A stretch of DNA of 15,049 bases from a virus. Its lineage: Duplodnaviria; Heunggongvirae; Uroviricota; Caudoviricetes. Positions 1-15,049 of the stretch are shown here, in pieces. The stretch lies in the IMG/VR virus record IMGVR_UViG_3300009034_004089, one strand, 5' to 3'. The notes below the pieces were generated by a model. It did not search any database. It was given only the letters and a program-made list of their open reading frames with translations, and had not been told where the DNA came from. Positions within the stretch are counted from its first letter, which is position 1. Each line of letters opens with the position of its first letter. The translations under genes and the position numbers were made by a program.

Positions 1-1284
1 TTACAGACTTCTGGAAGGTTGCGCAGCTCTTACAACACGCGGTTGATCTTCCGCAGCGTCTTCCAGCGCACTTAAATCACGGTCTTTCACCTCTGGCATT
101 TTCAGCGCAGAGATTAAACCAATCACTGAATATGCCATGATCATAATGGCGATCGGATACCAGGATTCCGTCATGGTGCAGAAAATACCCGCCAGGATAG
201 GACCAAAACCGGAAGCGATAAGACCACCAATTTCTTTAGAAATAGCCATCCGGGTAAAGCGGTTTTTACAGCCGAACATTTCTGCCATGGTAATGTTTTC
301 CAGAGCAAATAATCCCAGCACCGCACAGTTATGAATCACAATCAGTGCAACCATAATGGTGCTCGGGGCATAGCTTTTATCTACAATGATAGAAAGCATT
401 GGCCATGCCAGCACAATCGCGGAGGTATTCATAATAATATACGGGATCCGGCGACCAATTTTATCGGATAACCAACCAAGGAACGGAATGGTCATAAAGC
501 CGAGAATCGAACTAATCATCAATGCATCTGTTGGAATTGCTTTGTTAAACAATAACGTCTGCACTAAATAGCCTGCAAGGAAAGTCTGAATTAACCCGGA
601 GTTACCCGCCTGACCAAAACGCAGCCCTGTTGCCAGCCAGAAGGATTTGCTCTGGAACATGCTACCAGCAGGTGCAGGTTTTGCTGTGGGTTGGTTGCTG
701 TCATTAACCTTCTCAAAGACCGGGCTTTCTTTCAGATTCATACGTAACCAGATAGCAAAGACCATCACGACAACGCTCGCCAGGAACGGTATACGCCATC
801 CCCACGCCAGCAGTTCCTCTTTACTGAGAATGAAGAACATAAAGGCCCAGATTGCCGTTGCGCTCAAGGTTCCGCAGTTAGTTCCCATAGCTACAAATGA
901 GGAGATAATTCCGCGCTTACCTTTTGGTGCATATTCCGCCAGCATCGTACCGGCACCGGAAATTTCCGCACCTGCACCCAACCCCTGAATAATACGCAGC
1001 GTCACCAGCAAGATGGGGGCAAAAACACCAATCTGTGCATAGGTCGGTAACACACCAATTAAGGTGGTACAGATCCCCATCATGGTGATGGTAATAAAGA
1101 GCACTTTTTTACGCCCTATTCTGTCGCCCATTTTGCCGAAAATAAATGCTCCGACAATACGCGCCACATAACCTGCACCGTAGGTTCCCATTGCCAAAAT
1201 TAACGCCATTGCCGTTGATGATTCAGGAAAAAATATTTCATGAAACACTAACGCTGCGCCGAGCGAATATAACTGGAAATCCAT
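1..1284 (-). CDS. ydfJ: MFS transporter, metabolite:H+ symporter family (ShiA-like); the ORF begins abruptly at the prophage junction, consistent with an N-terminally truncated chromosomal gene
   Basis: 427-aa ORF ending at window base 1 (stop included); MFS-type multi-TM composition with GxxxDRxGRK-like motif (GKMGDRIGRKK); N-terminus (MDFQLYSLGAALVFHEIFFP) aligns from memory to an internal position of ShiA-type transporters, i.e. first TM segment missing; matches my recollection of K-12 YdfJ (pseudogene interrupted by Qin). Confidence 0.8.
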   Translation of the reverse strand: MDFQLYSLGAALVFHEIFFPESSTAMALILAMGTYGAGYVARIVGAFIFGKMGDRIGRKKVLFITITMMGICTTLIGVLPTYAQIGVFAPILLVTLRIIQGLGAGAEISGAGTMLAEYAPKGKRGIISSFVAMGTNCGTLSATAIWAFMFFILSKEELLAWGWRIPFLASVVVMVFAIWLRMNLKESPVFEKVNDSNQPTAKPAPAGSMFQSKSFWLATGLRFGQAGNSGLIQTFLAGYLVQTLLFNKAIPTDALMISSILGFMTIPFLGWLSDKIGRRIPYIIMNTSAIVLAWPMLSIIVDKSYAPSTIMVALIVIHNCAVLGLFALENITMAEMFGCKNRFTRMAISKEIGGLIASGFGPILAGIFCTMTESWYPIAIMIMAYSVIGLISALKMPEVKDRDLSALEDAAEDQPRVVRAAQPSRSL

Positions 1285-1887
1285 AATTCACAGGTGTTTT
1301 TTCCCATCCTGTGGTTCCCTTGGCGTTTTCTAGGTTTTTTCAGATAGTTGCATTTTTTAAAAAGCATCCTGAGTTCGATCTCAGTGTCTATCTGGGGCCT
1401 ATTTCTGTCCCATATATGCCCCAAAAAAACTCCCCAACAGATAAGTGGTTTTTTCATGGATTTATGCGTAAAATCAAGAACGGCTGGAAATCATTCAATA
1501 CACACACTATCGAAAAATTTACCAGCCAACCGCAGCACGTTCTTGCATAAGGCGTGTCTGCGGTTTTTCAACTATTCAGATACATCACTCCCATCACATT
1601 CATTCCTCCGCATCAAAGGCATATAGGCTATATCACCTTGATATTTTTCTTCTTCAGATAAAAACTGTTATCTATGTATACTTTTAAACCCAATCCGTGT
1701 AGAGTCTCTGCATAAGATAGTTTGCAGTTGCCGCTTCAGCTTGCGCCATAAACCGCCTGATTTTTGCTGCCACCTGTTAGCATTCCTGTATACCTGAAAC
1801 GACAATGTTTATCTACGAACTTTAAGAACACCCAAGATAAAAATCGTCAACTATATCATATATAACACATTAATAATTCGAGGCTAT

Positions 1888-2001
1888 ATGAACAGCATAC
1901 TGATAATCACTTCTCTCCTTATCATATTCAGCATTTTTAGTCATGCCCTAATAAAATTAGGGATTGGCATATCCAATAACCCAGACAAAACCGATGTATA
2001 A
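1888..2001 (+). CDS. Candidate small hydrophobic protein (37 aa, one predicted TM helix)
   Basis: ATG at 1888 preceded by GAGG at 1880-1883; translation [37 protein letters not shown], stop TAA 1999-2001; below the 60-aa cutoff of the ORF track; AT-rich intergenic context upstream of ynaE/ydfK. Confidence 0.25.
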
Positions 2002-2069
2002 GTCAACATATTCTGAATCAGACATACAATATCGCAATGAAAATCAATAATATTTTAAGGAATATCTTC

Positions 2070-2303
2070 ATGAAATCAAAAGACACCCTAAAGTGGTTCC
2101 CTGCGCAGCTTCCTGAAGTAAGAATTATCCTAGGGGATGCTGTAGTGGAAGTAGCAAAACAGGGAAGACCTATCAATACCAGAACATTGCTTGATTACAT
2201 TGAAGGAAACATAAAGAAAAAATCATGGCTGGATAACAAAGAATTATTACAAACAGCGATATCAGTTCTTAAAGACAACCAAAATTTAAATGGTAAAATG
2301 TAA
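2070..2303 (+). CDS. ydfK: YnaE/YdfK-family prophage protein (cold-shock-induced in K-12), 77 aa
   Basis: ORF 2037-2303; the MKSKDTLKWFPAQLPEV... portion from the ATG at 2070 matches remembered K-12 YnaE/YdfK over the full length; AAGGA upstream; ynaE (Rac) and ydfK (Qin) paralogues cannot be told apart by eye, ydfK chosen because of the ydfJ neighbour. Confidence 0.8.
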   Translation: MKSKDTLKWFPAQLPEVRIILGDAVVEVAKQGRPINTRTLLDYIEGNIKKKSWLDNKELLQTAISVLKDNQNLNGKM

Positions 2304-2465
2304 TATAATTAACTTACTTTTTTATCATTTTCCACTTTAACAACATTTTGCTCCACTTTTCCACGACCAAACAACTTGAAATCTGGTTAAAATAACACGC
2401 AACACTATTCTTCTTCCTTGAGTCCGCCCGGAACTCGAAAAACAAACCGAGTTAAAGCCATTTTT

Positions 2466-2483
2466 CACAAAATCGATTTTGGG
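2466..2483. promoter_or_regulatory. Near-perfect palindrome CACAAAATCGATTTTGGG (perfect 14-bp core CAAAATCGATTTTG) about 135 bp upstream of pin; candidate recombinase or regulator binding site
   Basis: Seen directly in sequence; AAAA-N4-TTTT architecture loosely resembles hix/gix-type crossover sites of serine invertases, but the match is weak and no partner site was found. Confidence 0.25.
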
Positions 2484-2618
2484 TCTCACCAAAATTACGG
2501 GGTTGCATACGCATTCGTTTATTTTCGAACGTGTACATACAAATATGCACAAAAATAATCAAAATTATTTTCTGAGATGCATTATGATATGAACACCAAT
2601 TTCGTATAGAGTCTCACT

Positions 2619-3209
2619 ATGTCTCGAATTTTTGCTTACTGTCGGATATCAACGCTGGATCAGACCACCGAAAATCAACGCCGGGAAATCGAAAGTGCAG
2701 GTTTTAAAATCAAACCTCAGCAAATAATCGAAGAACACATTAGCGGCTCAGCAGCAACCAGTGAGCGTCCTGGTTTTAACCGGTTGCTTGCTCGCCTGAA
2801 ATGTGGTGATCAATTGATTGTGACAAAATTGGATCGCCTTGGTTGTAATGCAATGGATATCAGGAAAACAGTGGAACAACTGACCGAAACAGGTATCAGA
2901 GTGCATTGCTTAGCATTGGGGGGCATTGACCTGACCAGTCCAACAGGAAAAATGATGATGCAAGTAATTTCAGCAGTCGCTGAATTTGAACGAGACCTTT
3001 TACTTGAACGCACTCATTCCGGGATAGTAAGAGCCCGCGGCGCAGGGAAACGTTTTGGTCGACCACCTGTGTTAAATGAAGAACAGAAACAGGTGGTATT
3101 CGAACGAATTAAGTCAGGTGTAAGTATAAGTGCCATTGCCCGGGAATTCAAAACCTCGCGGCAAACCATTTTAAGAGCCAAAGCAAAACTTCAGACACCT
3201 GACATATAA
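2619..3209 (+). CDS. pin: Serine recombinase / DNA invertase of the PinR/PinQ family, 196 aa
   Basis: Full-length ORF; N-terminal catalytic motif YCRISTLDQ with the nucleophilic serine; C-terminal HTH region; matches remembered K-12 PinR/PinQ (the paralogues are near-identical, so which one is not resolvable by eye). Confidence 0.9.
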
Positions 3210-3306
3210 AAAATAATCTCGGTGTGAGATGCTTTACGTCTTCCAAGCCCCCTTCCTTGCCGTAAATGGAAAGATACATCTAATTATAGAATTTATATGT
3301 TTTACC

Positions 3307-3417
3307 CTACGGCAGTGCTGGCCATTCAATATCCTGTGCAGTTGACGTATCAACACGGTTCAGCAATACCCGATACTTTTTCCATGCTTCCAGCAACGAG
3401 GTTTCTTCCTCCGTTGC
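3307..3417 (-). pseudogene. tfa: Tail fibre assembly protein (Tfa) C-terminal remnant, about 36 codons
   Basis: Minus-strand frame reads ...[36 protein letters not shown], matching the C-terminus of K-12 TfaR/TfaQ; upstream in-frame sequence ([17 protein letters not shown]) is unrelated and overlaps the 97-aa gene in another frame, so only the 3' end of tfa survives. Confidence 0.7.
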
Positions 3418-3436
3418 ATATACAGCCCACCTTTTT

Positions 3437-3730
3437 TCACCCACGATTAACCAACAGCCAGACCAGCAGACACGCCACCACCGGCACAGCAAAATCCATC
3501 AGGCTTGCCACATCCCACGCGCGCGGATCAAAACCGCCCCACCACGGCATATTCATTCGCTTGCCATGCCCGAACATTTCAATCCAGCGATATTCTGCCT
3601 GGGTATGTTCACGCGCAATGAAGAACGTACAACCGGCTATCGCTCCGTAAGCCCAGTTTCCGGTAAAAAGACCAACCAGTATCTGCGCAGCCACAGCACA
3701 AAGTGCATGAAGTAAGGGGCTTATATCCAT
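3437..3730 (-). CDS. Hypothetical small integral membrane protein (97 aa, about 3 predicted TM helices)
   Basis: ATG at 3730 preceded by GGAGG with a 5-nt spacer; 12-nt gap to the upstream 92-aa gene; hydrophobic stretches [51 protein letters not shown]; not recognised. Confidence 0.6.
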
Positions 3731-3742
3731 TATTTCCTCCTT

Positions 3743-4021
3743 TCAGCTCCATTCCCGAAGCGGTGTTTCCAGCTCCACGACATAATCAGAGAATACAGAA
3801 ACATCAAACAAGTCATCAAGAATGCGAATGTTGACAAAATAACCGTTATTCCGGATACAGACAGGTTCTCCCTCTTCAGTTACCCCTGTTTCTGTGTAGG
3901 TGAAACCAATTTCATCGACTAACAGTTTATTCTGGAGGTCTTCATCTTCCTCCCAGTCAAGAGATGACAGGAAGGATTTAAACTCTCTGTTACCAGGAAA
4001 TTTCAAAGTTAAATCTTTCAT
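3743..4021 (-). CDS. Hypothetical acidic soluble protein (92 aa)
   Basis: ATG at 4021 overlaps the TGA of the upstream 251-aa ORF (ATGA coupling); AGGAGG directly upstream; acidic composition (DWEEDEDLQ, EEGEP); not recognised. Confidence 0.6.
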   Translation of the reverse strand: MKDLTLKFPGNREFKSFLSSLDWEEDEDLQNKLLVDEIGFTYTETGVTEEGEPVCIRNNGYFVNIRILDDLFDVSVFSDYVVELETPLREWS

Positions 4022-4773
4022 ACTGCCTCCTTGATTTGCCTGTCATTTAATTCTTTAAACCAGACTCTGAAATTTCTGATGTGTCCAAACAAATGACGCG
4101 TTCCTGCTGCGGTCTGCCCACCAAACCGGTACGATGTTGCTGTAACTCCAAATATTTTACCATTAAGGTTTGTTGTATAATTACCATTGCATATTGCATT
4201 TACTGATAAATCAGATTTAGCTCTCACACCCACAATGAACCTTTCTCCATCTGAGGAAATTTGTGGCTGAACCATTCCTACGTTGGCGCTTATCTTTCCT
4301 GTTGAAACAAACCCCAGCGATAAATAATTATCATCAATACTGTGCCCTCCAACATCAAATATCCTTGGCGCAACATTGGGCGGTGTACTCCAGTTCCTCC
4401 TTACTTCGCACAATACTGTAAAAGGCCGTGTTGACAGGTTATTCGCCGAGGGGATAGTAACCACATCACTTGCGCGTGTTGTTGGCATTGTAGTTACAAT
4501 AAATGACGATGCCGTATTGCCCAGTTCAATTTGCGGCGTCGTCATGGTTAATGTTGAGTCATCATAGAATGGCTCATTACTTATTTTATTTGTCATATAA
4601 AAAGCACAGTTAACGGTATCAATGTCCGTATTAGCTGTATAAGTGGCCTCATAGTAGGTCCACTCGCCCTGTTGTTCAGCTTTGGCTGTTATAAGGGATG
4701 TATTACCGCTTACTGTTGCGATCCGGGTATTCGCCTTTATCGGTGTAAAATTCATCTGGCGACATACCGCCAT
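4018..4773 (-). CDS. Hypothetical beta-rich protein (251 aa) with a C-terminal region resembling a LamG/concanavalin-A-like jelly-roll lectin domain; possibly a receptor-binding or adhesin-type module
   Basis: T/N/S/G-rich composition typical of beta-sandwich fibre or lectin domains; C-terminal FGGQTAAGTRHLFGHIRNFRVWFKELNDRQIKEAV resembles the last strands of Laminin_G_3-type domains (pattern recognition only); in-frame stop 3 codons upstream of the ATG; no clear SD; first of three coupled genes. Confidence 0.55.
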   Translation of the reverse strand: MAVCRQMNFTPIKANTRIATVSGNTSLITAKAEQQGEWTYYEATYTANTDIDTVNCAFYMTNKISNEPFYDDSTLTMTTPQIELGNTASSFIVTTMPTTRASDVVTIPSANNLSTRPFTVLCEVRRNWSTPPNVAPRIFDVGGHSIDDNYLSLGFVSTGKISANVGMVQPQISSDGERFIVGVRAKSDLSVNAICNGNYTTNLNGKIFGVTATSYRFGGQTAAGTRHLFGHIRNFRVWFKELNDRQIKEAV

Positions 4774-5098
4774 CCCGAATCAGCTTTGCCCGGGTTTCCC
4801 CCACAATCTGTTTTTGTCTGGTGTAAGGCTGACGCAAAAACCATTCCCTGTAGGTTGTATCTCCGGCCAGAACAATGACCGGAACAGAATCCATTTTGAG
4901 CATTTCAGCCGCCATAACACGACCGTGACCCGCAATAATTTCGCCCTTTTCGTCAATCAGCACCGGATTAGTCCAGCCGAATTGCTTAATACTTTCTACC
5001 AGTTGTGCCACCTGCTCAGTACTGTGCGTCCTGGCGTTGTGCGCATACGGTGACAATTCTTGTAATGGGCGATAGACTATCTTTAATTTCTCGCTCAT
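4703..5098 (-). pseudogene. ynaK: ParB-like nuclease domain protein (YnaK-like), N-terminal ~79 aa conserved then out-of-family tail; truncated at a recombination junction near 4860
   Basis: ORF starts MSEKLKIVYRPLQELSPYAHNARTHSTEQVAQLVESIKQFGWTNPVLIDEKGEIIAGHGRVMAAEMLKMDSVPVIVLAG (ParB N-terminal fold with GHGR motif, as I recall K-12 YnaK); the remaining ~50 codons overlap the 251-aa gene in another frame and look non-native. Confidence 0.65.
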
Positions 5099-5117
5099 AC
5101 AGCCTTGCTTTATGAAT

Positions 5118-5150
5118 AAAACGCACCCCAGCAGCCAGTGCTACTGGGGG
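5118..5150 (-). terminator. Candidate intrinsic terminator downstream of trkG
   Basis: Inverted repeat CCCCAG...CTGGGG (5126-5131 / 5145-5150) followed on the minus strand by a T-rich tract (plus-strand AAAA at 5118-5121). Confidence 0.35.
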
Positions 5151-5235
5151 CGGAGGTGTTGCTGGTAAAGTTAGGTATTGGATCAATGAGTGAGTCAATA
5201 TAATATTAAACTCACAATTATAAATCAGCCATATA

Positions 5236-6693
5236 TTAGGAGCGCCAAAAAAAACCTGAAAACAATATAATAACAGGATAAATTTCAAGGCGACCAAGAA
5301 TCATAGCTATGCACATTAAATATTTTGCAATGTCATTAAGCACTCCGAATGACGATGCAGTAGCCCCAAAACCTAATCCCATATTATTAATACATGCAGC
5401 CACTGTTGCAAATGATGTAAGAAAATCATATCCCATACCATTTAACACCAGTATAAAAAACACCGTGAAGAGAGTATAAAGAAAAAAGAAACTCCATACA
5501 GACCTCATTACACGATCTGTAACTATCTTCCCTCCTACATTTACACTCAACAACGCTCTGGGATGAGAAAGCTGATTTATCTCGTGTTTGCTTTGTTTGA
5601 AAAGTATAAGAAATCGAAGTGACTTAATTCCACCACAAGTTGAACCTATACATCCCCCAAAGAAACTTGACGACAGCAAAAACACTATCGTGTGCGTGGG
5701 CCAGCTTGCATAATCCTGCGTAGCTAAACCATTATCAGTGAGCATGGAGCTGGCAAGAAAAAACGAATGAATAAAACTTCCATGCAAGTCATACATACCT
5801 ATATGCCAGACCTGGAAAGAGGTAACAATGATCACCCCTAAGGCTATTAACAGAAAGAAACGAAGTTCAATATCTCTGATTAAAGGTTTTATCGTTTTCC
5901 TGCTAATAACAATATACCAAAGAGTGAAGTTGAAAGCCGATAGCAGGGAAAAAGAACCAGCCACCAGCTCAACCAAATAGTTATTAAAATATCCGATACT
6001 CTCGCTATGAGTTGAGAAACCACCAAGCGAAACTGTGGAAATCCCGTGACAAATAGCATCAAACAAAGGCATTCCTGCAAGTCTATAACAGACAATACAA
6101 GCAATACCTAATAAAGAATAAGTTATCCACAGTGTCCGTGACGTATCGGCCAGGCGGGGAGTGAGTTTGTCATCCTTAAATGGCCCCGGCATTTCTGACT
6201 GATAAAGCTTTGCACCACCAATACCCAATAATGGCAATACAGCAACCGCCAGAACAATAACTCCTAAACCACCTATAAAATTTAACTGTGACCGATAGTA
6301 CAAATATGCCCGAGGTAATGAACTAACATCATCAATTACAGTTGCTCCTGTTGTTGTTATTCCAGAAACCCCTTCAAACAGAGCATCAATGAACGTTAAA
6401 TTAAGTTCTGAGTCAATCCATAAAGGGAATGCACTAATAACAGAAAACAAAATCCAAAACATTACAATTATAATAAACCCATCACGGGTACGTAATTGAA
6501 TGCCAGATTTCTTAGTTGTATACCACGCTCCGCCACCAATGCAAAAAAATATAACGAAAGTTATAAAGAAAACGAATAGGCTTTTTTCTTTATAAAACAA
6601 TGCTACAACCATTGGTGGCAACATTGAAAGACTATAGAGCCAAACCAGGAACCCACACATATGAGTAACAACTCTTACATGAGATGTATTCAT
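5236..6693 (-). CDS. trkG: Trk-system potassium uptake protein TrkG (485 aa)
   Basis: Translation from the ATG at 6693 (MNTSHVRVVTHMCGFLVWLYSL...) matches remembered K-12 TrkG end to end; multi-TM TrkH/TrkG family; conspicuously AT-rich; the track ORF begins 6 codons earlier at a TTG. Confidence 0.9.
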   Translation of the reverse strand: MNTSHVRVVTHMCGFLVWLYSLSMLPPMVVALFYKEKSLFVFFITFVIFFCIGGGAWYTTKKSGIQLRTRDGFIIIVMFWILFSVISAFPLWIDSELNLTFIDALFEGVSGITTTGATVIDDVSSLPRAYLYYRSQLNFIGGLGVIVLAVAVLPLLGIGGAKLYQSEMPGPFKDDKLTPRLADTSRTLWITYSLLGIACIVCYRLAGMPLFDAICHGISTVSLGGFSTHSESIGYFNNYLVELVAGSFSLLSAFNFTLWYIVISRKTIKPLIRDIELRFFLLIALGVIIVTSFQVWHIGMYDLHGSFIHSFFLASSMLTDNGLATQDYASWPTHTIVFLLSSSFFGGCIGSTCGGIKSLRFLILFKQSKHEINQLSHPRALLSVNVGGKIVTDRVMRSVWSFFFLYTLFTVFFILVLNGMGYDFLTSFATVAACINNMGLGFGATASSFGVLNDIAKYLMCIAMILGRLEIYPVIILFSGFFWRS

Positions 6694-6830
6694 ATCTAAA
6701 TATTCTTTCAATTATAACCACCTTGCTGCAATATTATGATTATACTGTATAAAATTTAACTCCTCTTAGATCTTACTTCACTGTTCCTTATGAAACAATC
6801 ATCAAAATGAATCATATTGTAGTTAAGATT

Positions 6831-7660
6831 TTACTTTAAACACTGTTCGGTTATGTATTGCTGAGCACCTTCAAGTTGGGCCTGCATCATTACCAGTCGT
6901 TCCCGGAGGGTGAAATAATCCCGTTCAGCGGTGTCTGCCAGTCGGGGGGAGGCTGCATTATCCACGCCGGAGGCGGTGGTGGCTTCACGCACTGACTGAC
7001 AGACTGCTTTGATGTGCAACCGACGACGACCAGCGGCAACATCATCACGCAGAGCATCATTTTCAGCTTTAGCATCAGCTAACTCCTTCGTGTATTTTGC
7101 ATCGAGCGCAGCAACATCACGCTGACGCATCTGCATGTCAGTAATTGCCGCGTTCGCCAGCTTCAGTTCTCTGGCATTTTTGTCGCGCTGGGCTTTGTAG
7201 GTAATGGCGTTATCACGGTAATGATTAACAGCCCATGACAGGCAGACGATGATGCAGATAACCAGAGCNNNNNNNNNNNNNNNNNNNNNNNNNNNNNNNN
7301 NNNNNNNNNNNNNNNNNNNNNNNNNNNNNNNNNNNNNNNNNNNNNNNNNNNNNNNNNNNNNNNNNNNNNNNNNNNNNNNNNNNNNNNNNNNNNNNNNNNN
7401 NNNNNNNNNNNNNNNNNNNNNNNNNNNNNNNNNNNNGCATCAGCTAACTCCTTCGTGTATTTTGCATCGAGCGCAGCAACATCACGCTGACGCATCTGCA
7501 TGTCAGTAATTGCCGCGTTCGCCAGCTTCAGTTCTCTGGCATTTTTGTCGCGCTGCTCTTTGTAGGCGGTGGCGTTATCACGGTAATGATTAACAGCCCA
7601 TGACAGGCAGACGATGATGCAGATAACCAGAGCATAAATAATCGCGGCGACTCTGCTCAC
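6831..7660 (-). CDS. Rz (i-spanin, inner-membrane spanin subunit); annotated span is inflated by a 168-N gap plus a 197-bp duplicated overlap; the true gene is about 465 nt
   Basis: N-terminal part (7660 down to 7437, probable GTG start overlapping the endolysin stop) reads [74 protein letters not shown]; C-terminal part (7136 down to 6831) reads [48 protein letters not shown]...EQCLK; resembles K-12 RzpD/RzpR. Confidence 0.75.
6890..7075 (-). CDS. Rz1 (o-spanin, outer-membrane lipoprotein spanin subunit), 61 aa, embedded in the +1 frame of Rz
   Basis: [26 protein letters not shown]... with lipobox LVVVGC and proline-rich tract [15 protein letters not shown]; classic embedded Rz1 architecture. 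Confidence 0.8.
7072..7268. repeat. Copy A of a 197-bp duplicated Rz segment abutting the N-gap (5 mismatches versus copy B)
   Basis: 7072-7268 aligns base for base with 7437-7633 except GGctttgtaggTAA versus CTctttgtaggCGG; ends exactly at the first N. Confidence 0.9.
7269..7436. other. Run of 168 N (scaffold gap)
   Basis: Literal N characters in the sequence; flanked on both sides by overlapping near-identical sequence, the signature of un-merged contig ends. Confidence 0.95.
7437..7633. repeat. Copy B of the 197-bp duplicated Rz segment, starting immediately after the N-gap
   Basis: See copy A; begins exactly at the first base after the N-run. Confidence 0.9.
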
Positions 7661-8190
7661 TGATCTATCCCCCAACAGGCTAATGCGCTTTCCTGGTCAC
7701 GACGAATAACCTGTCCATAGCAGTTATTTGAACGTATGCGGCAATCGCGCCCACCATCTTTTATCCACCAGCGAATCGCCTCGCATGCACCCTTACGATC
7801 ACCGGCATTCAGCCGCTTATAAAACGTCGACGGGAAACACTTACCGGGGCCAATGTTATAGGGACAAAATGACGCTATACCCGCTTTCTGTGGTTCGGTC
7901 AGTGGTACTTTAATATTGCGCTCCACCCATGCCAGCGCCTTATCACGTTCAATAGCGTTAACCTGGTCGCATTTTTCCTTCGACAGCCTCATTCCCGGTA
8001 TGACGGGCTTACCATCCACCATTGTGGCACCACGACAGATGGTCCATATACCGGAACCATCGCGGTATGCCGTTGTGTGGTTACCTTCTTTTTCATCCAG
8101 AAACTGGTCGAGAATATCAGGCGCAGGCGCACCGACGGCAATCAGTGCCAGAACGGCAGCCGACAGGCCGTATCTGATTTTTGCGTTCAT
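7657..8190 (-). CDS. Phage endolysin, T4-lysozyme-like (GH24), with a hydrophobic N-terminal segment suggesting a signal-anchor-release (SAR) type
   Basis: 177-aa ORF; E-x8-D-x5-T catalytic triad context ([19 protein letters not shown]); N-terminal [15 protein letters not shown] hydrophobic stretch; resembles remembered K-12 RrrD/RrrQ; stop overlaps the probable Rz start (GTGA). Confidence 0.85.
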
Positions 8191-8295
8191 GGATATTTAT
8201 CAGGATTTATCGGTTTCTGAACCCTGGATATGTTTATCTGTCCCGGCCTGTTGAATCAGGCAAGGAATAGTTAAATACAATAGAGAGGATTGTTT

Positions 8296-8568
8296 ATGGA
8301 CAATAGCACCATTTCTCTACAGGAGTTGCTCGACTGCATTTCCAAGCTTCGGGATGATGTAAATGCCCTTACTGTCGCATTTTCATATCTGGCATTCTCA
8401 ATTCCCAAGGAACAAATGCAACCAACACTGGCATCGCTCCAGCTTGAATCACTCAACCCCAAATGGTCCCAGCAACAACAAAATTCTTTCAAGTGGCTGG
8501 CGGTATTACTGGAAGAAAAATATGCTGGTGAAATTACCATTTCGGCGGAGTCTTCAGTGAACCAGTAA
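8296..8568 (+). CDS. Hypothetical protein (90 aa), predicted helical, not recognised
   Basis: ATG at 8296 with AGAGAGGA 6 nt upstream; protein-like composition (MDNSTISLQELLDCISKLRDDVNALTVAFSYLAFSIPKEQ...); the overlapping minus-strand frame 8271-8603 translates to low-complexity C/S-rich sequence and is less plausible. Confidence 0.5.
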   Translation: MDNSTISLQELLDCISKLRDDVNALTVAFSYLAFSIPKEQMQPTLASLQLESLNPKWSQQQQNSFKWLAVLLEEKYAGEITISAESSVNQ

Positions 8569-8878
8569 TTCTTCCCGGCAGTTTTCCTTTGTAGGTTATC
8601 CACACACCCTGCGCCTCTAAAATTATGGGGCGCTTTTCCGGTGACTGCTCATCCCCTTCACATAACCCTGCAGCAACATCCAGGAAGACCTGTCTGATGC
8701 TCCTTCTGGCTGCTGCCTCATAAAACTCCAGCGCGGCACCTTCAACACGGTCCAGCGAGATGTCCAGGTCTAAAATTTCACCGTCAAAGCGTTTTTTGTC
8801 CCGTAACGCTAAAGTTACCGTAACTTTATTCTCAAAATTGCGGATCCCTTTCACAATCAGTTCATAGTTTTGAGTCAT
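8534..8878 (-). CDS. Hypothetical protein (114 aa), not recognised; divergent from ydaG, convergent with and overlapping the 90-aa gene by 35 bp
   Basis: ATG at 8878 with GGGGAGAG 7 nt upstream; balanced composition (MTQNYELIVKGIRNFENKVTVTLALRDKKRFDGEILDLDISLDRVEGAALEFYEAAARRSIRQ...); no obvious HTH or Zn-finger motif by eye. Confidence 0.55.
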   Translation of the reverse strand: MTQNYELIVKGIRNFENKVTVTLALRDKKRFDGEILDLDISLDRVEGAALEFYEAAARRSIRQVFLDVAAGLCEGDEQSPEKRPIILEAQGVWITYKGKLPGRITGSLKTPPKW

Positions 8879-9093
8879 TGAATTACTCTCCCCGTGCAGC
8901 CTTACGCTTATCTTCTTTAATCTTGAAATAAAGATTTGTCAGATACGTCAACAGGCCAAACACCAGACTACCCAGCACACCTATTGCTGCCCACTGTGAG
9001 GGCGTGACTCTATCGAGCAACTGTAAAAACCAGTAGCCAGCACTGCCTGCGGAGGTGCCATAGGCGACACCCGGCGTTAAGGGGAGAGATAAG
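8879..9093. promoter_or_regulatory. Divergent intergenic region expected to carry the leftward-early (pL-like) promoter for ydaG-ydaF and the promoter of the 114-aa gene; contains the inverted repeat AATCTT-N6-AAGATT at 8919-8936
   Basis: 215 bp without a plausible ORF between two divergent genes that both carry GGGGAGAG-type SDs; the inverted repeat was seen directly; no confident -35/-10 call. Confidence 0.3.
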
Positions 9094-9228
9094 ATGGTGC
9101 ATTACGAAGTAGTTCAGTATTTGATGGATTGTTGCGGTATCACTTACAGCCCGGCTGTGCAGGCTTTACGTAGCAACGACTGGGATCTCTGGCAAGCAGA
9201 AGCCTCTATCCGCAACAACAAGATGTGA
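9094..9228 (+). CDS. ydaG: Rac prophage small protein YdaG (44 aa)
   Basis: ATG at 9094 preceded by AAGGGGAGAG; translation [44 protein letters not shown]; size and position (upstream of ydaF, flanking sieB) match K-12 Rac; below the ORF-track cutoff. Confidence 0.6.
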
Positions 9229-9238
9229 GGTGCGAAAA

Positions 9239-9394
9239 ATGCAAAAAATCGACCTCGGCAACAACGAATCCCTGGTGTGCGGCGTGTTCCCCAACCAGGA
9301 TGGAACGTTCACTGCCATGACGTATACCAAAAGCAAAACATTTAAAACCGAAACTGGTGCGCGCCGATGGTTGGAGAAGCACACAGTAAGCTAA
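9239..9394 (+). CDS. ydaF: Rac prophage small protein YdaF (51 aa)
   Basis: ATG at 9239; translation MQKIDLGNNESLVCGVFPNQDGTFTAMTYTKSKTFKTETGARRWLEKHTVS; 3' end overlaps the convergent sieB stop by 4 nt; size and order match K-12 Rac. Confidence 0.6.
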   Translation: MQKIDLGNNESLVCGVFPNQDGTFTAMTYTKSKTFKTETGARRWLEKHTVS

Positions 9395-9879
9395 CGATTA
9401 AAACGTCTACTCCTGCTGTTCCAGAATAACTTCATAAAATGGGAGTATTTTTCGGTGACGAGATAATAAGAACAGTTTGCGCTATCACTCTGATGTTGAA
9501 TGATGCCCTTCCGTTCTAATTTTTTCATAACCGGGTTACGGCAAGGAGAAGTGATAATAAGATTTCCTGTTTTAAGGAAATCTTTAAATACAGCGATTTC
9601 TTTCTCAGATAAACGAAGCAATACTCGTTGCTCTGGTAGTAATGAATAATGCTTTTGAATATGCGCTCGCAATCTTGAGAAGGAAATGGCGACCACGAAA
9701 GAAAAGGCAAAAACGATAATCTGAAAGAGCCAAGGTATTTCAGTATAAGCATTGAATGCGACAGTAAACTCTTTCGGTATCAGCCAGAGAGTGAGACCAA
9801 AAATGATAATCGTATACATAAGTCTTTCGAGTGGCTCGTTAGCAAAAAGTTTCAACAATGGAGTAAATACATCCAACAT
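9391..9879 (-). CDS. sieB: Superinfection exclusion protein B (SieB), 162 aa
   Basis: From the internal ATG at 9879 the translation MLDVFTPLLKLFANEPLERLMYTIIIFGLTLWLIPKEF... matches remembered K-12 SieB over the full length; the track ORF extends 41 codons further upstream (to 10002), which I treat as non-coding read-through. Confidence 0.85.
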   Translation of the reverse strand: MLDVFTPLLKLFANEPLERLMYTIIIFGLTLWLIPKEFTVAFNAYTEIPWLFQIIVFAFSFVVAISFSRLRAHIQKHYSLLPEQRVLLRLSEKEIAVFKDFLKTGNLIITSPCRNPVMKKLERKGIIQHQSDSANCSYYLVTEKYSHFMKLFWNSRSRRFNR

Positions 9880-10096
9880 ATCAATAACTCTCAACTGTAA
9901 GGGTATTGAAATGTTAACACAAGCTCTCGCTGTAGGGGTATAGCCGAGACCACCGAAGCCCGGAGGTGGTGAAATAAAACCGGGCACAACACGAAGGCGC
10001 ATTTCCGATATCCATAAAGAGTCGGTCTTGTCTGTTAAATTTAAATGGTGGGAGTGCGCCTCCGGTTGTAAATAACGACATTGCTGTGTGTAGTCC

Positions 10097-10145
10097 TGGC
10101 GGCATCAGTTTTTTTCTTGAAGTTCGGCTGATGTCCGCCCTTTTT
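10097..10145 (+). terminator. Candidate rho-independent terminator (plus strand) between sieB and kilR
   Basis: Inverted repeat TGGCGGCATCAG (10097-10108) / CTGATGTCCGCC (10128-10139) with a 19-nt loop, followed by CTTTTT (10140-10145). Confidence 0.45.
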
Positions 10146-10320
10146 AAAGTGAATTTTGTGATGCGGTGAATGCGGCTAAGCGCACGTGGCACAGTTAAAA
10201 GTCATGTTAGTCCTTATTGGTTTGGGTGGGAAAGCCGACTGTAATTGTTAACTGGTTGCAGTCACCTGGAGGCACCAGGCACCGCATCAACAAAGTTCAT
10301 TTGTAAAAATGGAGATAATT

Positions 10321-10542
10321 ATGATTGCACATCACTTCGGAACTGATGAAATACCACGTCAGTGTGTGACTCCTGGCGATTATGTTCTTCATGAAGGCCG
10401 GACATATATTGCCTCGGCAAACAATATTAAAAAGCGAAAACTATATATTCGTAACCTGACCACAAAAACATGCATTACTGACCGCATGATTAAAGTCTTC
10501 CTCGGTCGTGATGGTTTACCTGTAAAGGCGGAGTCATGGTGA
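10321..10542 (+). CDS. kilR: KilR, Rac prophage killing protein (FtsZ-directed division inhibitor in K-12), 73 aa
   Basis: [73 protein letters not shown] matches remembered K-12 KilR; GGAGA SD 5 nt upstream of the ATG at 10321 (the track ORF starts 4 codons earlier at 10309). Confidence 0.85.
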
Positions 10543-10712
10543 TGACTAAGAAAATAAAATGTGCTTACCACCTTTGCAAAAAAGACGTTGAAGAAAGCAA
10601 AGCTATTGAAAGAATGCTTCACTTCATGCACGGGATTTTATCAAAAGACGAACCGAGAAAATATTGCAGTGAAGCTTGTGCCGAAAAAGACCAGATGGCA
10701 CATGAACTTTAA
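10542..10712 (+). CDS. ydaE: YdaE, small 4-Cys zinc-ribbon-like protein (56 aa)
   Basis: ATG at 10542 overlaps the kilR stop (TGATG); translation [56 protein letters not shown] with C7, C12, C42, C46; matches size and position of K-12 YdaE; below the ORF-track cutoff. Confidence 0.7.
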   Translation: MTKKIKCAYHLCKKDVEESKAIERMLHFMHGILSKDEPRKYCSEACAEKDQMAHEL

Positions 10713-10786
10713 TTAATTGACTATTCGAAACTGAATTTATGCCAGAAATGGCAGGTATTCGCTCAACCTTAATTAAGGAGAAAAAC

Positions 10787-11062
10787 ATGATTACCAATTA
10801 TGAAGCCACTGTTGTAACTACCGATGACATTGTTCACGAGGTGAATCTGGAAGGAAAGCGCATTGGCTACGTAATTAAAACAGAAAATAAAGAAACCCCA
10901 TTCACTGTGGTTGATATCGATGGTCCATCAGGCAACGTAAAAACACTTGATGAAGGTGTCAAAAAAATGTGCCTGGTGCATATCGGAAAGAATCTGCCCG
11001 CAGAAAAAAAAGCCGAATTTCTGGCAACTCTAATTGCAATGAAATTAAAAGGTGAAATCTGA
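10787..11062 (+). CDS. racC: RacC (Rac prophage protein), 91 aa
   Basis: MITNYEATVVTTDDIVHEVNLEGKRIGYVIKTENKETPFTVVDIDGPSGNVKTLDEGVKKMCLVHIGKNLPAEKKAEFLATLIAMKLKGEI from the ATG at 10787, with AAGGAG 6 nt upstream; matches remembered K-12 RacC. Confidence 0.85.
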   Translation: MITNYEATVVTTDDIVHEVNLEGKRIGYVIKTENKETPFTVVDIDGPSGNVKTLDEGVKKMCLVHIGKNLPAEKKAEFLATLIAMKLKGEI

Positions 11063-11069
11063 AAGAAAT

Positions 11070-11090
11070 AGCCTGCGTATGGCGCAGGCT
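11070..11090 (+). promoter_or_regulatory. Short hairpin (8-bp stem AGCCTGCG / CGCAGGCT, 5-nt loop) between racC and recE; possible attenuator or processing site, not followed by a T-run
   Basis: Seen directly; lies in the racC-recE spacer, the region where K-12 sbcA-type activation of recE is known to map (established knowledge, not verified here). Confidence 0.25.
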
Positions 11091-11163
11091 ATGAACAGTG
11101 TGTATCCGGCAAGATCATTCACTGAACAAAACGAATTTTAATCTGAGTTGAGGTTAAAAAACA

Positions 11164-11439
11164 ATGAGCACAAAACCACTCTTCCTGTTACGGAAAGCGA
11201 AAAAATCATCCGGTGAACCTGACGTCGTCCTGTGGGCAAGCAACGATTTTGAATCGACCTGTGCCACTCTGGACTACCTGATCGTTAAGTCAGGTAAAAA
11301 ACTGAGCAGCTATTTTAAAGCTGTTGCCACGAATTTTCCTGTCGTTAATGACCTGCCCGCTGAAGGTGAGATCGATTTTACCTGGAGTGAACGCTATCAA
11401 CTCAGCAAAGACTCCATGACATGGGAACTAAAATCGTAG
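11164..11439 (+). pseudogene. recE: recE 5' fragment (first about 90 codons of exonuclease VIII) terminated after an internal out-of-frame deletion
   Basis: [90 protein letters not shown] matches the RecE N-terminus; reading frame ends at TAG 11437-11439 right after the deletion junction. Confidence 0.8.
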
Positions 11440-12263
11440 AAGACATAGAGCCAGGTATTTATTACGGAATTTCGAATGAGAATTACCACGCGGGTCCCGG
11501 TATCAGTAAGTCTCAGCTCGATGACATTGCTGATACTCCGGCACTATATTTGTGGCGTAAAAATGCCCCCGTGGACACCACAAAGACAAAAACGCTCGAT
11601 TTAGGAACTGCTTTCCACTGCCGGGTACTTGAACCGGAAGAATTCAGTAACCGCTTTATCGTAGCACCTGAATTTAACCGCCGTACAAACGCCGGAAAAG
11701 AAGAAGAGAAAGCGTTTCTGATGGAATGCGCAAGCACAGGAAAAACGGTTATCACTGCGGAAGAAGGCCGGAAAATTGAACTCATGTATCAAAGCGTTAT
11801 GGCTTTGCCGCTGGGGCAATGGCTTGTTGAAAGCGCCGGACACGCTGAATCATCAATTTACTGGGAAGATCCTGAAACAGGAATTTTGTGTCGGTGCCGT
11901 CCGGACAAAATTATCCCTGAATTTCACTGGATCATGGACGTGAAAACTACGGCGGATATTCAACGATTCAAAACCGCTTATTACGACTACCGCTATCACG
12001 TTCAGGATGCATTCTACAGTGACGGTTATGAAGCACAGTTTGGAGTGCAGCCAACTTTCGTTTTTCTGGTTGCCAGCACAACTATTGAATGCGGACGTTA
12101 TCCGGTTGAAATTTTCATGATGGGCGAAGAAGCAAAACTGGCAGGTCAACAGGAATATCACCGCAATCTGCGAACCCTGTCTGACTGCCTGAATACCGAT
12201 GAATGGCCAGCTATTAAGACATTATCACTACCCCGCTGGGCTAAGGAATATGCAAATGACTAA
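11421..12263 (+). CDS. recE: RecE C-terminal nuclease domain (280-aa ORF; 5'-3' dsDNA exonuclease core of exonuclease VIII)
   Basis: From [31 protein letters not shown]... to ...[11 protein letters not shown] the translation matches the C-terminal about 276 aa of K-12 RecE; the ATG at 11421 is created at the junction in a frame shifted relative to the N-terminal stub; no SD by eye; 3' end overlaps the recT start as in K-12. Confidence 0.8.
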
Positions 12264-13065
12264 GCAACCACCAATCGCAAAAGCCGATCTGCAAAAAACT
12301 CAGGGAAACCGTGCACCAGCAGCAGTTAAAAATAGCGACGTGATTAGTTTTATTAACCAGCCATCAATGAAAGAGCAACTGGCAGCAGCTCTTCCACGCC
12401 ATATGACGGCTGAACGTATGATCCGTATCGCCACCACAGAAATTCGTAAAGTTCCGGCGTTAGGAAACTGTGACACTATGAGTTTTGTCAGTGCGATCGT
12501 ACAGTGTTCACAGCTCGGACTTGAGCCAGGTAGCGCCCTCGGTCATGCATATTTACTGCCTTTTGGTAATAAAAACGAAAAGAGCGGTAAAAAGAACGTT
12601 CAGCTAATCATTGGCTATCGCGGCATGATTGATCTGGCTCGCCGTTCTGGTCAAATCGCCAGCCTGTCAGCCCGTGTTGTCCGTGAAGGTGACGAGTTTA
12701 GCTTCGAATTTGGCCTTGATGAAAAGTTAATACACCGCCCGGGAGAAAACGAAGATGCCCCGGTTACCCACGTCTATGCTGTCGCAAGACTGAAAGACGG
12801 AGGTACTCAGTTTGAAGTTATGACGCGCAAACAGATTGAGCTGGTGCGCAGCCTGAGTAAAGCTGGTAATAACGGGCCGTGGGTAACTCACTGGGAAGAA
12901 ATGGCAAAGAAAACGGCTATTCGTCGCCTGTTCAAATATCTGCCCGTATCAATTGAGATCCAGCGTGCAGTATCAATGGATGAAAAGGAACCACTGACAA
13001 TCGATCCTGCAGATTCCTCTGTATTAACCGGGGAATACAGTGTAATCGATAATTCAGAGGAATAA
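12256..13065 (+). CDS. recT: RecT single-strand annealing recombinase (269 aa)
   Basis: [65 protein letters not shown]... full-length match to remembered K-12 RecT; AAGGA SD; start overlaps the recE stop. Confidence 0.92.
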
Positions 13066-13121
13066 TTCAGCCTGGCGGTGTAATGCACCGCCAACTTGAA
13101 ATATTTTTTATGAGAAAAATT

Positions 13122-13316
13122 ATGAGATATGACAATGTTAAACCATGTCCATTTTGTGGTTGTCCATCAGTAACGGTGAAAGCCATTTCAGGATATTACC
13201 GAGCGAAGTGTAACGGATGCGAATCCCGAACCGGTTATGGTGGAAGTGAAAAAGAAGCACTCGAAAGATGGAATAAACGAACCACTGGAAATAATAATGG
13301 AGGTGTTCATGTATAA
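13122..13316 (+). CDS. ralR: RalR (Lar) restriction alleviation protein, 64 aa
   Basis: MRYDNVKPCPFCGCPSVTVKAISGYYRAKCNGCESRTGYGGSEKEALERWNKRTTGNNNGGVHV; CxxC...CxxC zinc-ribbon; matches remembered K-12 RalR; an alternative ATG lies 4 codons upstream at 13110. Confidence 0.85.
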   Translation: MRYDNVKPCPFCGCPSVTVKAISGYYRAKCNGCESRTGYGGSEKEALERWNKRTTGNNNGGVHV

Positions 13317-13518
13317 AATTACCGCCACTATTGAAAAGGAAGGTGGCACTCCTACTAACTGGACAAGATATTCAAAATCTAAACTAACGAAATCAGAATG
13401 CGAAAAAATGCTCTCAGGTAAAAAAGAAGCAGGCGTTTCCAGAGAGCAGAAAGTAAAACTGATAAATTTTAATTGCGAGAAACTTCAGTCCTCGAGAATT
13501 GCATTGTATTCAAATTAA
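13309..13518 (+). CDS. ydaC: YdaC (Rac prophage protein), 69 aa
   Basis: MYKITATIEKEGGTPTNWTRYSKSKLTKSECEKMLSGKKEAGVSREQKVKLINFNCEKLQSSRIALYSN from the ATG at 13309, with GGAGG upstream; overlaps the ralR 3' end by 8 nt. Confidence 0.8.
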   Translation: MYKITATIEKEGGTPTNWTRYSKSKLTKSECEKMLSGKKEAGVSREQKVKLINFNCEKLQSSRIALYSN

Positions 13519-13596
13519 AACTTCATAGCTGATTATTAATAATCAACATCGGGCGTCAATTTCAGTCTAACATTGGCGCCTGCCAGAGGTGATGCG

Positions 13597-13812
13597 ATGG
13601 CACAAGTAATCTTTAATGAAGAGTGGATGGTTGAATACGGCCTGATGCTTCGCACTGGTCTGGGGGCCAGACAAATTGAAGCATACCGCCAGAACTGTTG
13701 GGTGGAGGGCTTCCACTTCAAACGAGTATCTCCTTTAGGTAAGCCAGACAGCAAACGAGGGATTATCTGGTACAACTATCCAAAGATAAATCAGTTTATC
13801 AAAGACTCATGA
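13597..13812 (+). CDS. xisR: Excisionase (XisR / YdaQ), 71 aa
   Basis: [71 protein letters not shown]; GAGGTGA SD; stop abuts the int ATG (TGATATG); the track ORF begins 8 codons upstream at a TTG. Confidence 0.8.
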
Positions 13813-13813
13813 T

Positions 13814-15049
13814 ATGTCTAAATTACCAACAGGTGTCGAGATTAGAGGTAGATACATTCGCATCTGGTTCATGTTTCGAGGAAAACGATGTCGGGAAACA
13901 TTAAAAGGCTGGGAGATTACAAACAGTAATATTAAAAAGGCCGGAAATTTAAGATCGCTGATAGTTCATGAAATAAACTCCGGTGAATTTGAGTATTTAA
14001 GACGTTTTCCCCAGTCCAGCACTGGGGCAAAAATGGTGACAACGAGAGTCATAAAAACGTTCGGAGAGCTTTGTGATATCTGGACAAAAATTAAAGAGAC
14101 AGAGTTAACAACAAACACAATGAAGAAAACGAAATCACAATTAAAAACACTCAGAATAATAATTTGTGAAAGTACCCCGATATCACATATTCGTTATAGC
14201 GATATCTTAAACTACCGGAATGAACTGCTGCATGGAGAAACGCTTTACCTGGATAATCCAAGATCCAACAAAAAAGGAAGAACCGTGCGCACAGTTGATA
14301 ACTATATCGCCCTGCTCTGTTCGCTGTTGCGTTTTGCGTATCAGTCGGGATTTATATCAACTAAACCATTTGAAGGAGTAAAAAAATTACAGCGAAACAG
14401 AATAAAGCCTGATCCGTTATCTAAAACAGAATTCAATGCATTAATGGAAAGTGAAAAAGGACAGAGCCAGAACTTGTGGAAATTTGCCGTTTACTCAGGA
14501 CTTCGTCACGGGGAACTGGCAGCTCTGGCGTGGGAGGATGTGGATCTCGAAAAGGGAATAGTGAATGTCAGAAGAAACCTGACGATACTTGATATGTTCG
14601 GTCCCCCAAAAACAAATGCCGGGATCCGAACAGTAACACTACTGCAGCCTGCTCTTGAAGCACTGAAGGAGCAATACAAACTGACCGGGCATCATCGCAA
14701 AAGCGAAATCACCTTTTATCATCGGGAGTACGGCAGAACCGAAAAGCAAAAACTGCATTTTGTTTTCATGCCCAGGGTGTGTAACGGAAAACAAAAACCT
14801 TATTACTCGGTAAGCAGTTTGGGGGCAAGGTGGAATGCAGCAGTAAAACGTGCTGGTATTCGCCGCCGTAATCCGTACCATACGCGGCATACTTTTGCCT
14901 GCTGGCTGTTGACGGCAGGAGCGAACCCGGCATTTATAGCCAGCCAAATGGGGCATGAAACTGCGCAGATGGTGTATGAAATTTACGGTATGTGGATTGA
15001 TGACATGAACGACGAACAGATAGCCATGTTGAATGCGCGGTTATCGTAG
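13814..15049 (+). CDS. intR: Tyrosine site-specific integrase, Rac IntR type (411 aa, complete; stop is the last codon of the window)
   Basis: Full-length ORF with the C-terminal catalytic region of tyrosine recombinases (…RNPYHTRHTFACWLLTAGANPAFIASQMGHETAQMVYEIYGMW…); matches remembered K-12 IntR; xis-int arrangement. Confidence 0.9.
   Translation: MSKLPTGVEIRGRYIRIWFMFRGKRCRETLKGWEITNSNIKKAGNLRSLIVHEINSGEFEYLRRFPQSSTGAKMVTTRVIKTFGELCDIWTKIKETELTTNTMKKTKSQLKTLRIIICESTPISHIRYSDILNYRNELLHGETLYLDNPRSNKKGRTVRTVDNYIALLCSLLRFAYQSGFISTKPFEGVKKLQRNRIKPDPLSKTEFNALMESEKGQSQNLWKFAVYSGLRHGELAALAWEDVDLEKGIVNVRRNLTILDMFGPPKTNAGIRTVTLLQPALEALKEQYKLTGHHRKSEITFYHREYGRTEKQKLHFVFMPRVCNGKQKPYYSVSSLGARWNAAVKRAGIRRRNPYHTRHTFACWLLTAGANPAFIASQMGHETAQMVYEIYGMWIDDMNDEQIAMLNARLS

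Follow-up and report, generated by a model that had tools for sequence, protein, structure and literature searches.

The IMG/VR virus record IMGVR_UViG_3300009034_004089, a stretch of 15,049 bp analysed here at its full length and called the window below, is Escherichia coli DNA of the B/BL21 lineage in which the left end of the Qin prophage is fused to the body of the Rac prophage within pin, a recombinase gene shared by the two. This hybrid architecture, a Qin-type ydfJ–ydfK–pin junction joined to Rac-type genes, had been proposed in a sequence-only reading of the window, and alignment together with phasing of single-nucleotide polymorphisms (SNPs) places it at the same positions. The features of the window are the following, with open reading frames (ORFs) measured in amino acids (aa).

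1–1284, minus strand: ydfJ', a truncated transporter gene of the major facilitator superfamily, identical to the ydfJ pseudogene of BL21(DE3); it is the chromosomal gene interrupted by Qin and forms the unique flank on the Qin side.
1526–3743: segment shared by Rac and Qin (ynaM/ynfT, ydfK/ynaE, pin and a tfa' remnant), the substrate of the exchange, defined by three-way alignment.
1888–2001, plus strand: ynfT/ynaM, a small protein gene in Qin phase (BL21(DE3) annotation and SNP phasing).
2070–2303, plus strand: ydfK, a cold-shock gene in Qin phase (BL21(DE3) annotation and SNP phasing).
2619–3209, plus strand: pin, a serine recombinase gene chimeric at the DNA level, with pinQ alleles in its 5' part (2626, 2744) and pinR alleles in its 3' part (3038, 3107).
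3307–3417, minus strand: tfa', a tail-fibre-assembly remnant in Rac phase (annotation of BL21(DE3) Rac and phasing).
3437–4755, minus strand: Rac-specific tail-fibre remnants, ORFs of 97 aa, 92 aa and 245 aa, with the joint of a BL21-specific deletion of 2,542 bp at about 4729/4730.
4856–5098, minus strand: ynaK', a ParB-like fragment of Rac (annotation of BL21(DE3) Rac).
5236–6693, minus strand: trkG, a potassium transporter gene carried as Rac cargo (match to BL21(DE3) Rac).
6831–7268, minus strand: 3' part of an Rz-like lysis gene, in which 6906–7268 is the paralogue of a lambda-like prophage.
7269–7436: scaffold gap of 168 N, with the same 197 bp of Rz on both sides in differing versions.
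7437–9095, minus strand: Rac lysis cassette, 100% identical to BL21(DE3) Rac; its members, all on the minus strand, are the 5' part of Rz (7437–7660), lysozyme (7657–8190), a ydfR-family gene (8534–8878) and the essD holin gene (8883–9095).
9391–9879, minus strand: sieB, a superinfection exclusion gene (annotation of BL21(DE3) Rac).
10321–11062, plus strand: kilR, ydaE and racC (annotation of BL21(DE3) Rac).
11164–12263, plus strand: recE as two ORFs, with the joint of a BL21-specific internal deletion of 1,499 bp at about 11432/11433.
12256–13518, plus strand: recT, ralR and rcbA (annotation of BL21(DE3) Rac).
13597–15049, plus strand: xisR and intR, the excisionase and integrase genes of Rac (annotation of BL21(DE3) Rac).

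The parental sequences of both parts were found in BL21(DE3). The left part, window 1–3743, is 99.28% identical to the left junction of Qin in this strain (ydfJ pseudogene, ynfT, ydfK, pinQ, tfa'), and window 1–3700 corresponds to NC_012971.2 1,580,299–1,583,998 on the plus strand, the same strand as in the window, with the gene order ydfI-ydfJ'-ynfT-ydfK-pinQ-tfa'. The arrangement that marks the Qin left junction, a truncated ydfJ followed by ynfT-ydfK-pinQ, occupies window 1–2744. The right part, window 1526–15049, corresponds to BL21(DE3) Rac at 1,397,168–1,410,327 on the minus strand, opposite to the window, with the order ynaM-ydfK-pinR-tfa'-tail-fibre remnants-ynaK'-trkG-Rz-lysozyme-ydfR-essD-ydaF-sieB-kilR-ydaE-racC-recE'-recT-ralR-rcbA-xisR-intR. 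The set of Rac genes (intR-xisR-rcbA-ralR-recT-recE-racC-kilR-sieB...trkG) is present in the Rac order, and 3038–15049 is colinear with BL21(DE3) Rac. The Qin cargo that lies past pin (the Qin tail-fibre genes; nohA, cspI and others in K-12) is absent from the window, in which all genes and alleles past 3038 are those of Rac. Both deletions that set BL21 apart from REL606, 2,542 bp in the tail-fibre region and 1,499 bp in recE, are present in this Rac.

What differs is the neighbourhood of the prophage. Rac of BL21(DE3) is flanked by nifJ-ompN-uspF on the ynaM side and by ttcA on the intR side, and REL606 has uspF-ompN distally as well, whereas the distal end of Rac in the window adjoins ydfJ' and not uspF-ompN. 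The right edge of the window coincides with the intR stop codon, and the window thus shows neither the attachment site nor ttcA.

The two copies of the shared module in BL21(DE3) are 2.2 kb long, about 98% identical and inverted with respect to each other: pinR (1,408,643–1,409,233) and pinQ (1,582,917–1,583,507) match the window on opposite strands and lie 174 kb apart. The K-12 gene assignments given in the sequence-only reading, according to which Qin starts in ydfJ and the pin ends of the two prophages are inverted at a distance of about 0.2 Mb, agree with the MG1655 annotation, where pinR (minus strand, 1,433,084–1,433,674) and pinQ (plus strand, 1,633,622–1,634,212) are inverted and 200 kb apart and the Qin feature starts inside ydfJ.

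To see how often such a join occurs, megablast searches were run with the whole window, and with its part 700–5300, against 5,426 closed E. coli genomes. The top matches were BL21, BL21(DE3), C41/C43, T7 Express, REL606 and other B strains, in which only 1526–15049 is covered, at 99.9% identity. The ydfJ-to-trkG join was absent from all 5,426 genomes in these searches, the best cover at any single place being 88–89%. None of the 58 closed B-type genomes carrying this Rac has the junction; they align only from position 1526 of the window on and, therefore, none of them has ydfJ on the distal side of Rac.

To place the join, the window was aligned with both BL21(DE3) copies, that of Rac and that of Qin, over the 2.2-kb shared segment. 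Qin alleles are found in the window at 1525, 1550, 1552, 1557, 1616, 1845, 1873, 2012, 2310, 2327 (an indel), 2562, 2626 and 2744, and Rac alleles at 3038, 3107, 3367 and all later sites. The window is identical to BL21(DE3) Qin over 1–2428 and follows the Qin junction base for base up to 2744, the sole exception being position 2429; from 3038 on it is 100% identical to BL21(DE3) Rac, save for six mismatches at 7071–7204 just before the N run. Judged from these alleles, both parts of the fusion, the Qin junction and the Rac body, are BL21's own. The parental phase switches inside the homology, between 2744 and 3038, as expected of a recombinant junction, and the exchange interval 2745–3037 comprises 293 bp without any difference between the two prophage copies; it lies within pin (coding sequence 2619–3209, codons 43–140) and is the second longest identical stretch of the Rac/Qin repeat. 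The C at 2429, a single Rac allele in the Qin-phase tract at distances of 102 and 133 bp from the neighbouring informative sites, is either a gene-conversion patch or a consensus error. A collapsed-repeat consensus was rejected as the source of the mosaic, the phase pattern being far too ordered for independent picks of alleles.

We considered the chimeric Pin protein as a unique tag of the hybrid and rejected it: PinQ and PinR of BL21 differ only at residue 3, and the chimeric pin encodes the BL21 PinQ protein. The window-specific hybrid pattern of pin SNPs gave no matches in viral_contigs and metagenome_contigs, and a degenerate pin pattern, which includes the parental and reciprocal copies, gave none in genome_contigs. 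Look-ups of exact proteins merge places with similar neighbours, so that a hybrid could hide among the places not shown. In these look-ups YdfJ' was far too common to be informative, while the BL21-specific 245-aa fusion was found, among the places listed, only in normal Rac contexts and in two otherwise rearranged BL21 genomes.

The same alleles bear on the origin of the right part. As an alternative, the sequence-only reading had suggested that a Rac-like phage was acquired independently and integrated at ydfJ in this lineage, and in many wild strains ydfJ is indeed the site of a full lambdoid prophage whose tail-fibre genes are Rac-like. However, both halves match the prophage loci of BL21(DE3) itself: up to 2744, apart from 2429, the sequence is the Qin junction of this strain, and from 3038 on, apart from the paralogue stretch 7071–7204, it is the strain's own Rac, including two lineage-specific deletion joints. 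Since an independently acquired phage would not share the BL21-specific joints, this alternative is ruled out for practical purposes and we regard it as highly improbable. Moreover, the integrase gene is intR, which adjoins ttcA in every annotated genome inspected.

Another candidate mechanism is site-specific inversion by the Pin serine recombinase, acting at crossover (pix) sites adjacent to pinR and pinQ. An intact Pin protein is encoded in each of the two repeats, and PinQ acts in vivo on the P segment of e14 (PMC12529663). In addition, Rac is interrupted in two closed BL21 assemblies at a single position, the stop codon of tfa' (window ~3310), which hints at a hotspot. Nevertheless, the exchange interval 2745–3037 lies inside the pin ORF and not at a short crossover site outside it, and an exchange at the candidate site near 3310 cannot yield the observed mosaic, in which 3038 and 3107, both left of that site, already carry Rac alleles. 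No hix/gix-like core AAACCNNGGTTT (at most one mismatch) was found anywhere in the window, and the phase switches of three hybrids, i.e., the window and the K-12 strains C600 and Origami2-DE3 described below, are at three different places. The Din-family invertases (Pin of e14, Gin of Mu, Hin) resemble the window in that pin is next to tail-fibre assembly genes and DNA inversion is the outcome, but they act on segments of 1.8–4 kb through short specific sites outside the recombinase ORF, whereas the exchange in the window lies inside the ORF and within kilobase-scale homology. A Pin-catalysed origin of the join is thus very unlikely.

The two assemblies with broken Rac, BL21(RP) and one labelled BL21(DE3), have their breakpoint at the same nucleotide beside pin, window ~3307–3312 (NZ_CP084683.1, ~1,998,100; NZ_CP081489.1, ~2,253,575). 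One of the broken Rac prophages is joined to a truncated fhuA via about 54 bp resembling an IS10 end, and the other to a 5S ribosomal RNA gene in the rrnD region next to yhdWXYZ. The shared breakpoint could represent a hotspot (a possible Pin crossover site or quasi-site), shared ancestry or a shared assembly artefact.

A second anomaly of the window concerns its assembly. The run of 168 N at 7269–7436 means that at least two contigs were scaffolded to give the window. The flanks of this run, 7072–7268 and 7437–7633, are the same 197 bp of Rz in two versions with 97.5% identity, the left one being the paralogue version and the right one the Rac version; the gap is therefore spurious, because the contig ends overlap. 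For the same two-version flanks, deliberate masking of genuine sequence was rejected as an explanation of the N run. Over its last 363 bp, 6906–7268, the left contig shows 100% identity with the Rz/rzpD paralogue that BL21(DE3) carries at 765.9 kb in its lambda-like prophage; the neighbours of that paralogue are bor, an antitermination gene and a holin gene of the lambda family. The left contig differs from the Rac Rz at 7071, 7191, 7192 and 7202–7204: it leaves Rac-unique sequence, crosses 165 bp that are identical in the two copies, goes on in the wrong prophage and stops exactly at the divergence of the two Rz paralogues, while the right contig begins exactly one base past the first Rz paralogue SNP. 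We conclude that the window is a short-read scaffold with a paralogue switch at one contig end.

The Rz match also suggests that a lambda-type copy of Rz, like that of BL21(DE3), is present in the source strain. In the look-ups of exact proteins, the 101-aa Rz fragment was common in natural Rac variants, and the ORF spanning the gap had no record.

The sequence-only reading had interpreted the hybrid as the product of a Rac x Qin inversion. One part of this claim stands, as the sequence is the exact recombinant that an exchange between the inverted pin/ydfK homologies would give; the other part, that the join arose in a cell, is doubtful in a gapped draft scaffold. If such an event took place, it would be RecA-type homologous recombination between the inverted 2.2-kb ynaM-ydfK-pin-tfa' repeats in a strain of the BL21(DE3) lineage, with the crossover at 2745–3037. 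The corresponding exchange points in BL21(DE3) are ~1,408,815–1,409,107 in Rac and 1,583,043–1,583,335 in Qin, so that a segment of 174.2 kb would be inverted across the terminus; the window would then represent junction 1 of the inversion, and the Rac allele at 2429 a conversion patch. We regard this as a real possibility, although one to be held with some doubt. In its favour, the parental copies are inverted in BL21(DE3), both halves match this strain including its private deletions, and the window has a single clean phase switch. Within the BL21(DE3) interval are dif (1,548,847–1,548,874, differing from the K-12 site by a single mismatch) and the core of TerC (1,557,241), the equivalents of which in MG1655 are at 1,590,750 and 1,609,166. 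The polarity of the dif region should be kept, because the whole region inverts as a unit, and such an inversion should therefore be nearly neutral, or tolerated.

Precedent in K-12 was obtained with a synthetic K-12 hybrid query constructed from MG1655, in which the Qin left junction up to mid-pin was followed by the reverse complement of Rac from mid-pin through tfaR-stfR. Two K-12 genomes in the closed set, C600 and Origami2-DE3, match this query over 100% of its length in one piece, at 99.9% identity or more. In C600 (NZ_CM132660.1, GCF_053852375.1), junction 1 reads ydfG-rspR-ydfZ-ydfI-ydfJ'-ynfT-ydfK-pin-tfaR-stfR-lomR::IS5-ynaA-ydaY-ynaK-trkG-...-recE-recT-...-intR-ttcA-dbpA, and the reciprocal junction, nohA-stfQ'-tfaQ-pin-ydfK-ynaM-uspF-ompN-nifJ, is about 200 kb away; among the closed genomes searched, this reciprocal block was found in C600 only. 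The phase switch in C600 is between the 3' end of pin and tfa. C600 shares with the window the two prophages, the inverted repeat and the gene order of junction 1, and its inverted segment spans dif and TerC; it differs in the K-12 background, the full-length tfaR/stfR, a crossover located further to the right, the visible reciprocal junction and the closed state of the assembly.

At both junctions of C600, ynaM-ydfK and the 5' part of pin are in Qin phase. The approximately 1.2 kb of Qin alleles in the reciprocal copy are either a conversion tract that accompanied the crossover or the result of homogenisation of the copies beforehand.

Origami2-DE3 (NZ_CP084529.1) has an analogue of junction 1 with another crossover point, the switch being at the far left edge of the repeat, and one out-of-phase site. 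A colinear block with the reciprocal junction is missing, and other rearrangements are present, which makes the support of this strain for an inversion weak. Its intR is truncated and directly followed by entD-fepA, and there are further large rearrangements in the genome or in the assembly. With the reciprocal block missing and intR truncated against entD, we downgraded this strain as a second clean example of the inversion.

Exchange between the same or similar repeats is documented in published systems. In ER2796, also a K-12 strain, gene conversion between Rac and Qin was described (PMC4444293): the substrate is the same repeat pair as in the window, with SNP alleles swapped between the ydfK and ynaE copies, but the process was non-crossover, eight SNPs being converted with the gene order unchanged. 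In E. coli O157:H7, prophage-mediated inversions in the terminus region arose by homologous recombination (Fitzgerald et al. 2021, PMC8743559), and prophage inversions in this serotype are also attributed to Iguchi et al. 2006 in the citation given by PMC4173774. These resemble the event proposed for the window in that homologous recombination acts on inverted, near-identical lambdoid segments; they differ in involving Shiga toxin and other lambdoid phages, often in much larger segments, and in being confirmed by long reads, pulsed-field gel electrophoresis or polymerase chain reaction. A Rac x Qin inversion was not found described in the literature, and none of the inversions of the long-term evolution experiment, the ancestor of which is REL606, was attributed to recombination between prophage repeats.

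In the wild strains 23AR1101 and 2017.18.04CC, nohA or terminase genes are located near pinR-uspF-ompN, so that Qin-like packaging genes are found there in the prophage occupying the Rac site. Natural mosaics between the Rac and Qin prophage families may, thus, exist.

Against an inversion in the source strain stands its rarity. Besides the zero count in the 58 B-type genomes, no more than one or two of the 5,426 closed genomes show a Rac x Qin hybrid of any kind, and since these hybrids are so few, the prior for a real inversion is a fraction of a percent per strain, well under 1%. The evidence for it consists solely of one internal join, and the gapped short-read scaffold containing this join demonstrably mis-phased another prophage paralogue. 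By a rough estimate from general experience, short-read scaffolders mis-join inverted repeats of 98% identity at least as often as this prior. On these base rates, a mis-join of the left part to the rest is somewhat the more likely reading.

We therefore lean, with a modest degree of confidence, towards the view that the Qin-left x Rac join at 2745–3037 in pin is an assembly chimera and was not made in a cell. The short-read assembly would have entered the Qin copy from the unique ydfJ flank, lost track of the phase where the copies are identical at length, and come out on the Rac side; as the copies are inverted, a mis-join of this kind would mimic one junction of a 174-kb inversion across the terminus. 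The source is a scaffolded draft with 168 N and overlapping, non-identical contig ends, and the same scaffold contains a separate paralogue switch. The assembly there changed between near-identical prophage paralogues after an identical stretch of 165 bp, and the identical stretch in pin is longer, 293 bp. We infer that both switches share one cause: an assembly with no phasing power over identical stretches of 100 bp or more would account for all three anomalies, i.e., the join in pin, the allele at 2429 and the Rz switch. Assembly errors at the prophages DLP12, RAC and QIN have been reported (PMC3045373); that case is similar to the window in the draft state of the assembly, the join within a long exact repeat and the paralogue-derived contig end by a scaffold gap, and differs in that it came from 454/Newbler reference mapping.

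Several observations weigh against an assembly chimera. The phase is clean: 16 Qin-phase sites (15 SNPs and one indel) with one exception are followed by Rac alleles only, which is expected of a single crossover and not of a collapsed repeat consensus. The contig continues unbroken for 3.5 kb past the shared segment into Rac-unique sequence, and most assemblers break at such repeats instead of mis-joining them. The Rz error is located at a contig end and is, thus, milder than an internal chimeric join. Finally, the same inversion with both junctions in the closed genome of C600 makes the event physically plausible, and a patch at a single out-of-phase site, such as the one at 2429, occurs in Origami2-DE3 too.

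The repeat is problematic in a closed B strain as well. In AS19-RrmA- (NZ_CP027430.1), the Qin copy alternates between Qin and Rac alleles site by site over the window-equivalent 1400–3800, the pinQ locus encodes a PinR-type protein, and the same out-of-phase allele is present at 2429. This mosaic is due either to multiple gene conversions or to polishing errors at the repeat.

Apart from the join, the window illustrates how Rac of the B type departs from that of K-12. Between sieB and trkG, B-type Rac carries the lysis cassette of essD, ydfR, lysozyme and Rz (window 7437–9879), whereas Rac of MG1655 has racR-ydaS-ydaT-ydaU-ydaV-ydaW and only an rzpR remnant at this place, so that the central regions of the two prophages differ substantially. 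In recE, the internal deletion of 1,499 bp leaves an ORF of 91 aa and a C-terminal ORF of about 280 aa with the nuclease domain; since the gene is split in this way, the RecE exonuclease is probably defective.

In either case, the hybrid is nothing new in kind: it represents a known homology-driven inversion between well-known cryptic prophages or a mis-join at a known problem repeat. Its biological weight is small: the two prophages, the inverted module that they share, their gene conversion and inversions mediated by prophages are established knowledge, and a closed K-12 genome with this inversion is already public. The gene order across the Rac/Qin repeat in this assembly is not to be trusted unless data spanning the repeat in its full length are at hand. 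A tentative suggestion, which we would not press, is that the 174-kb inversion is physical; together with C600 and possibly Origami2-DE3, it would make the ynaM-ydfK-pin module an inversion hotspot that is used repeatedly, and apparently tolerated well, in both main laboratory lineages of E. coli. If so, dif would lie about 105.6 kb from its usual place, with TerC in reversed orientation on the opposite side of it. Work on replication termination or on the resolution of chromosome dimers in BL21 derivatives could be affected by this, as could reference-based variant calling.

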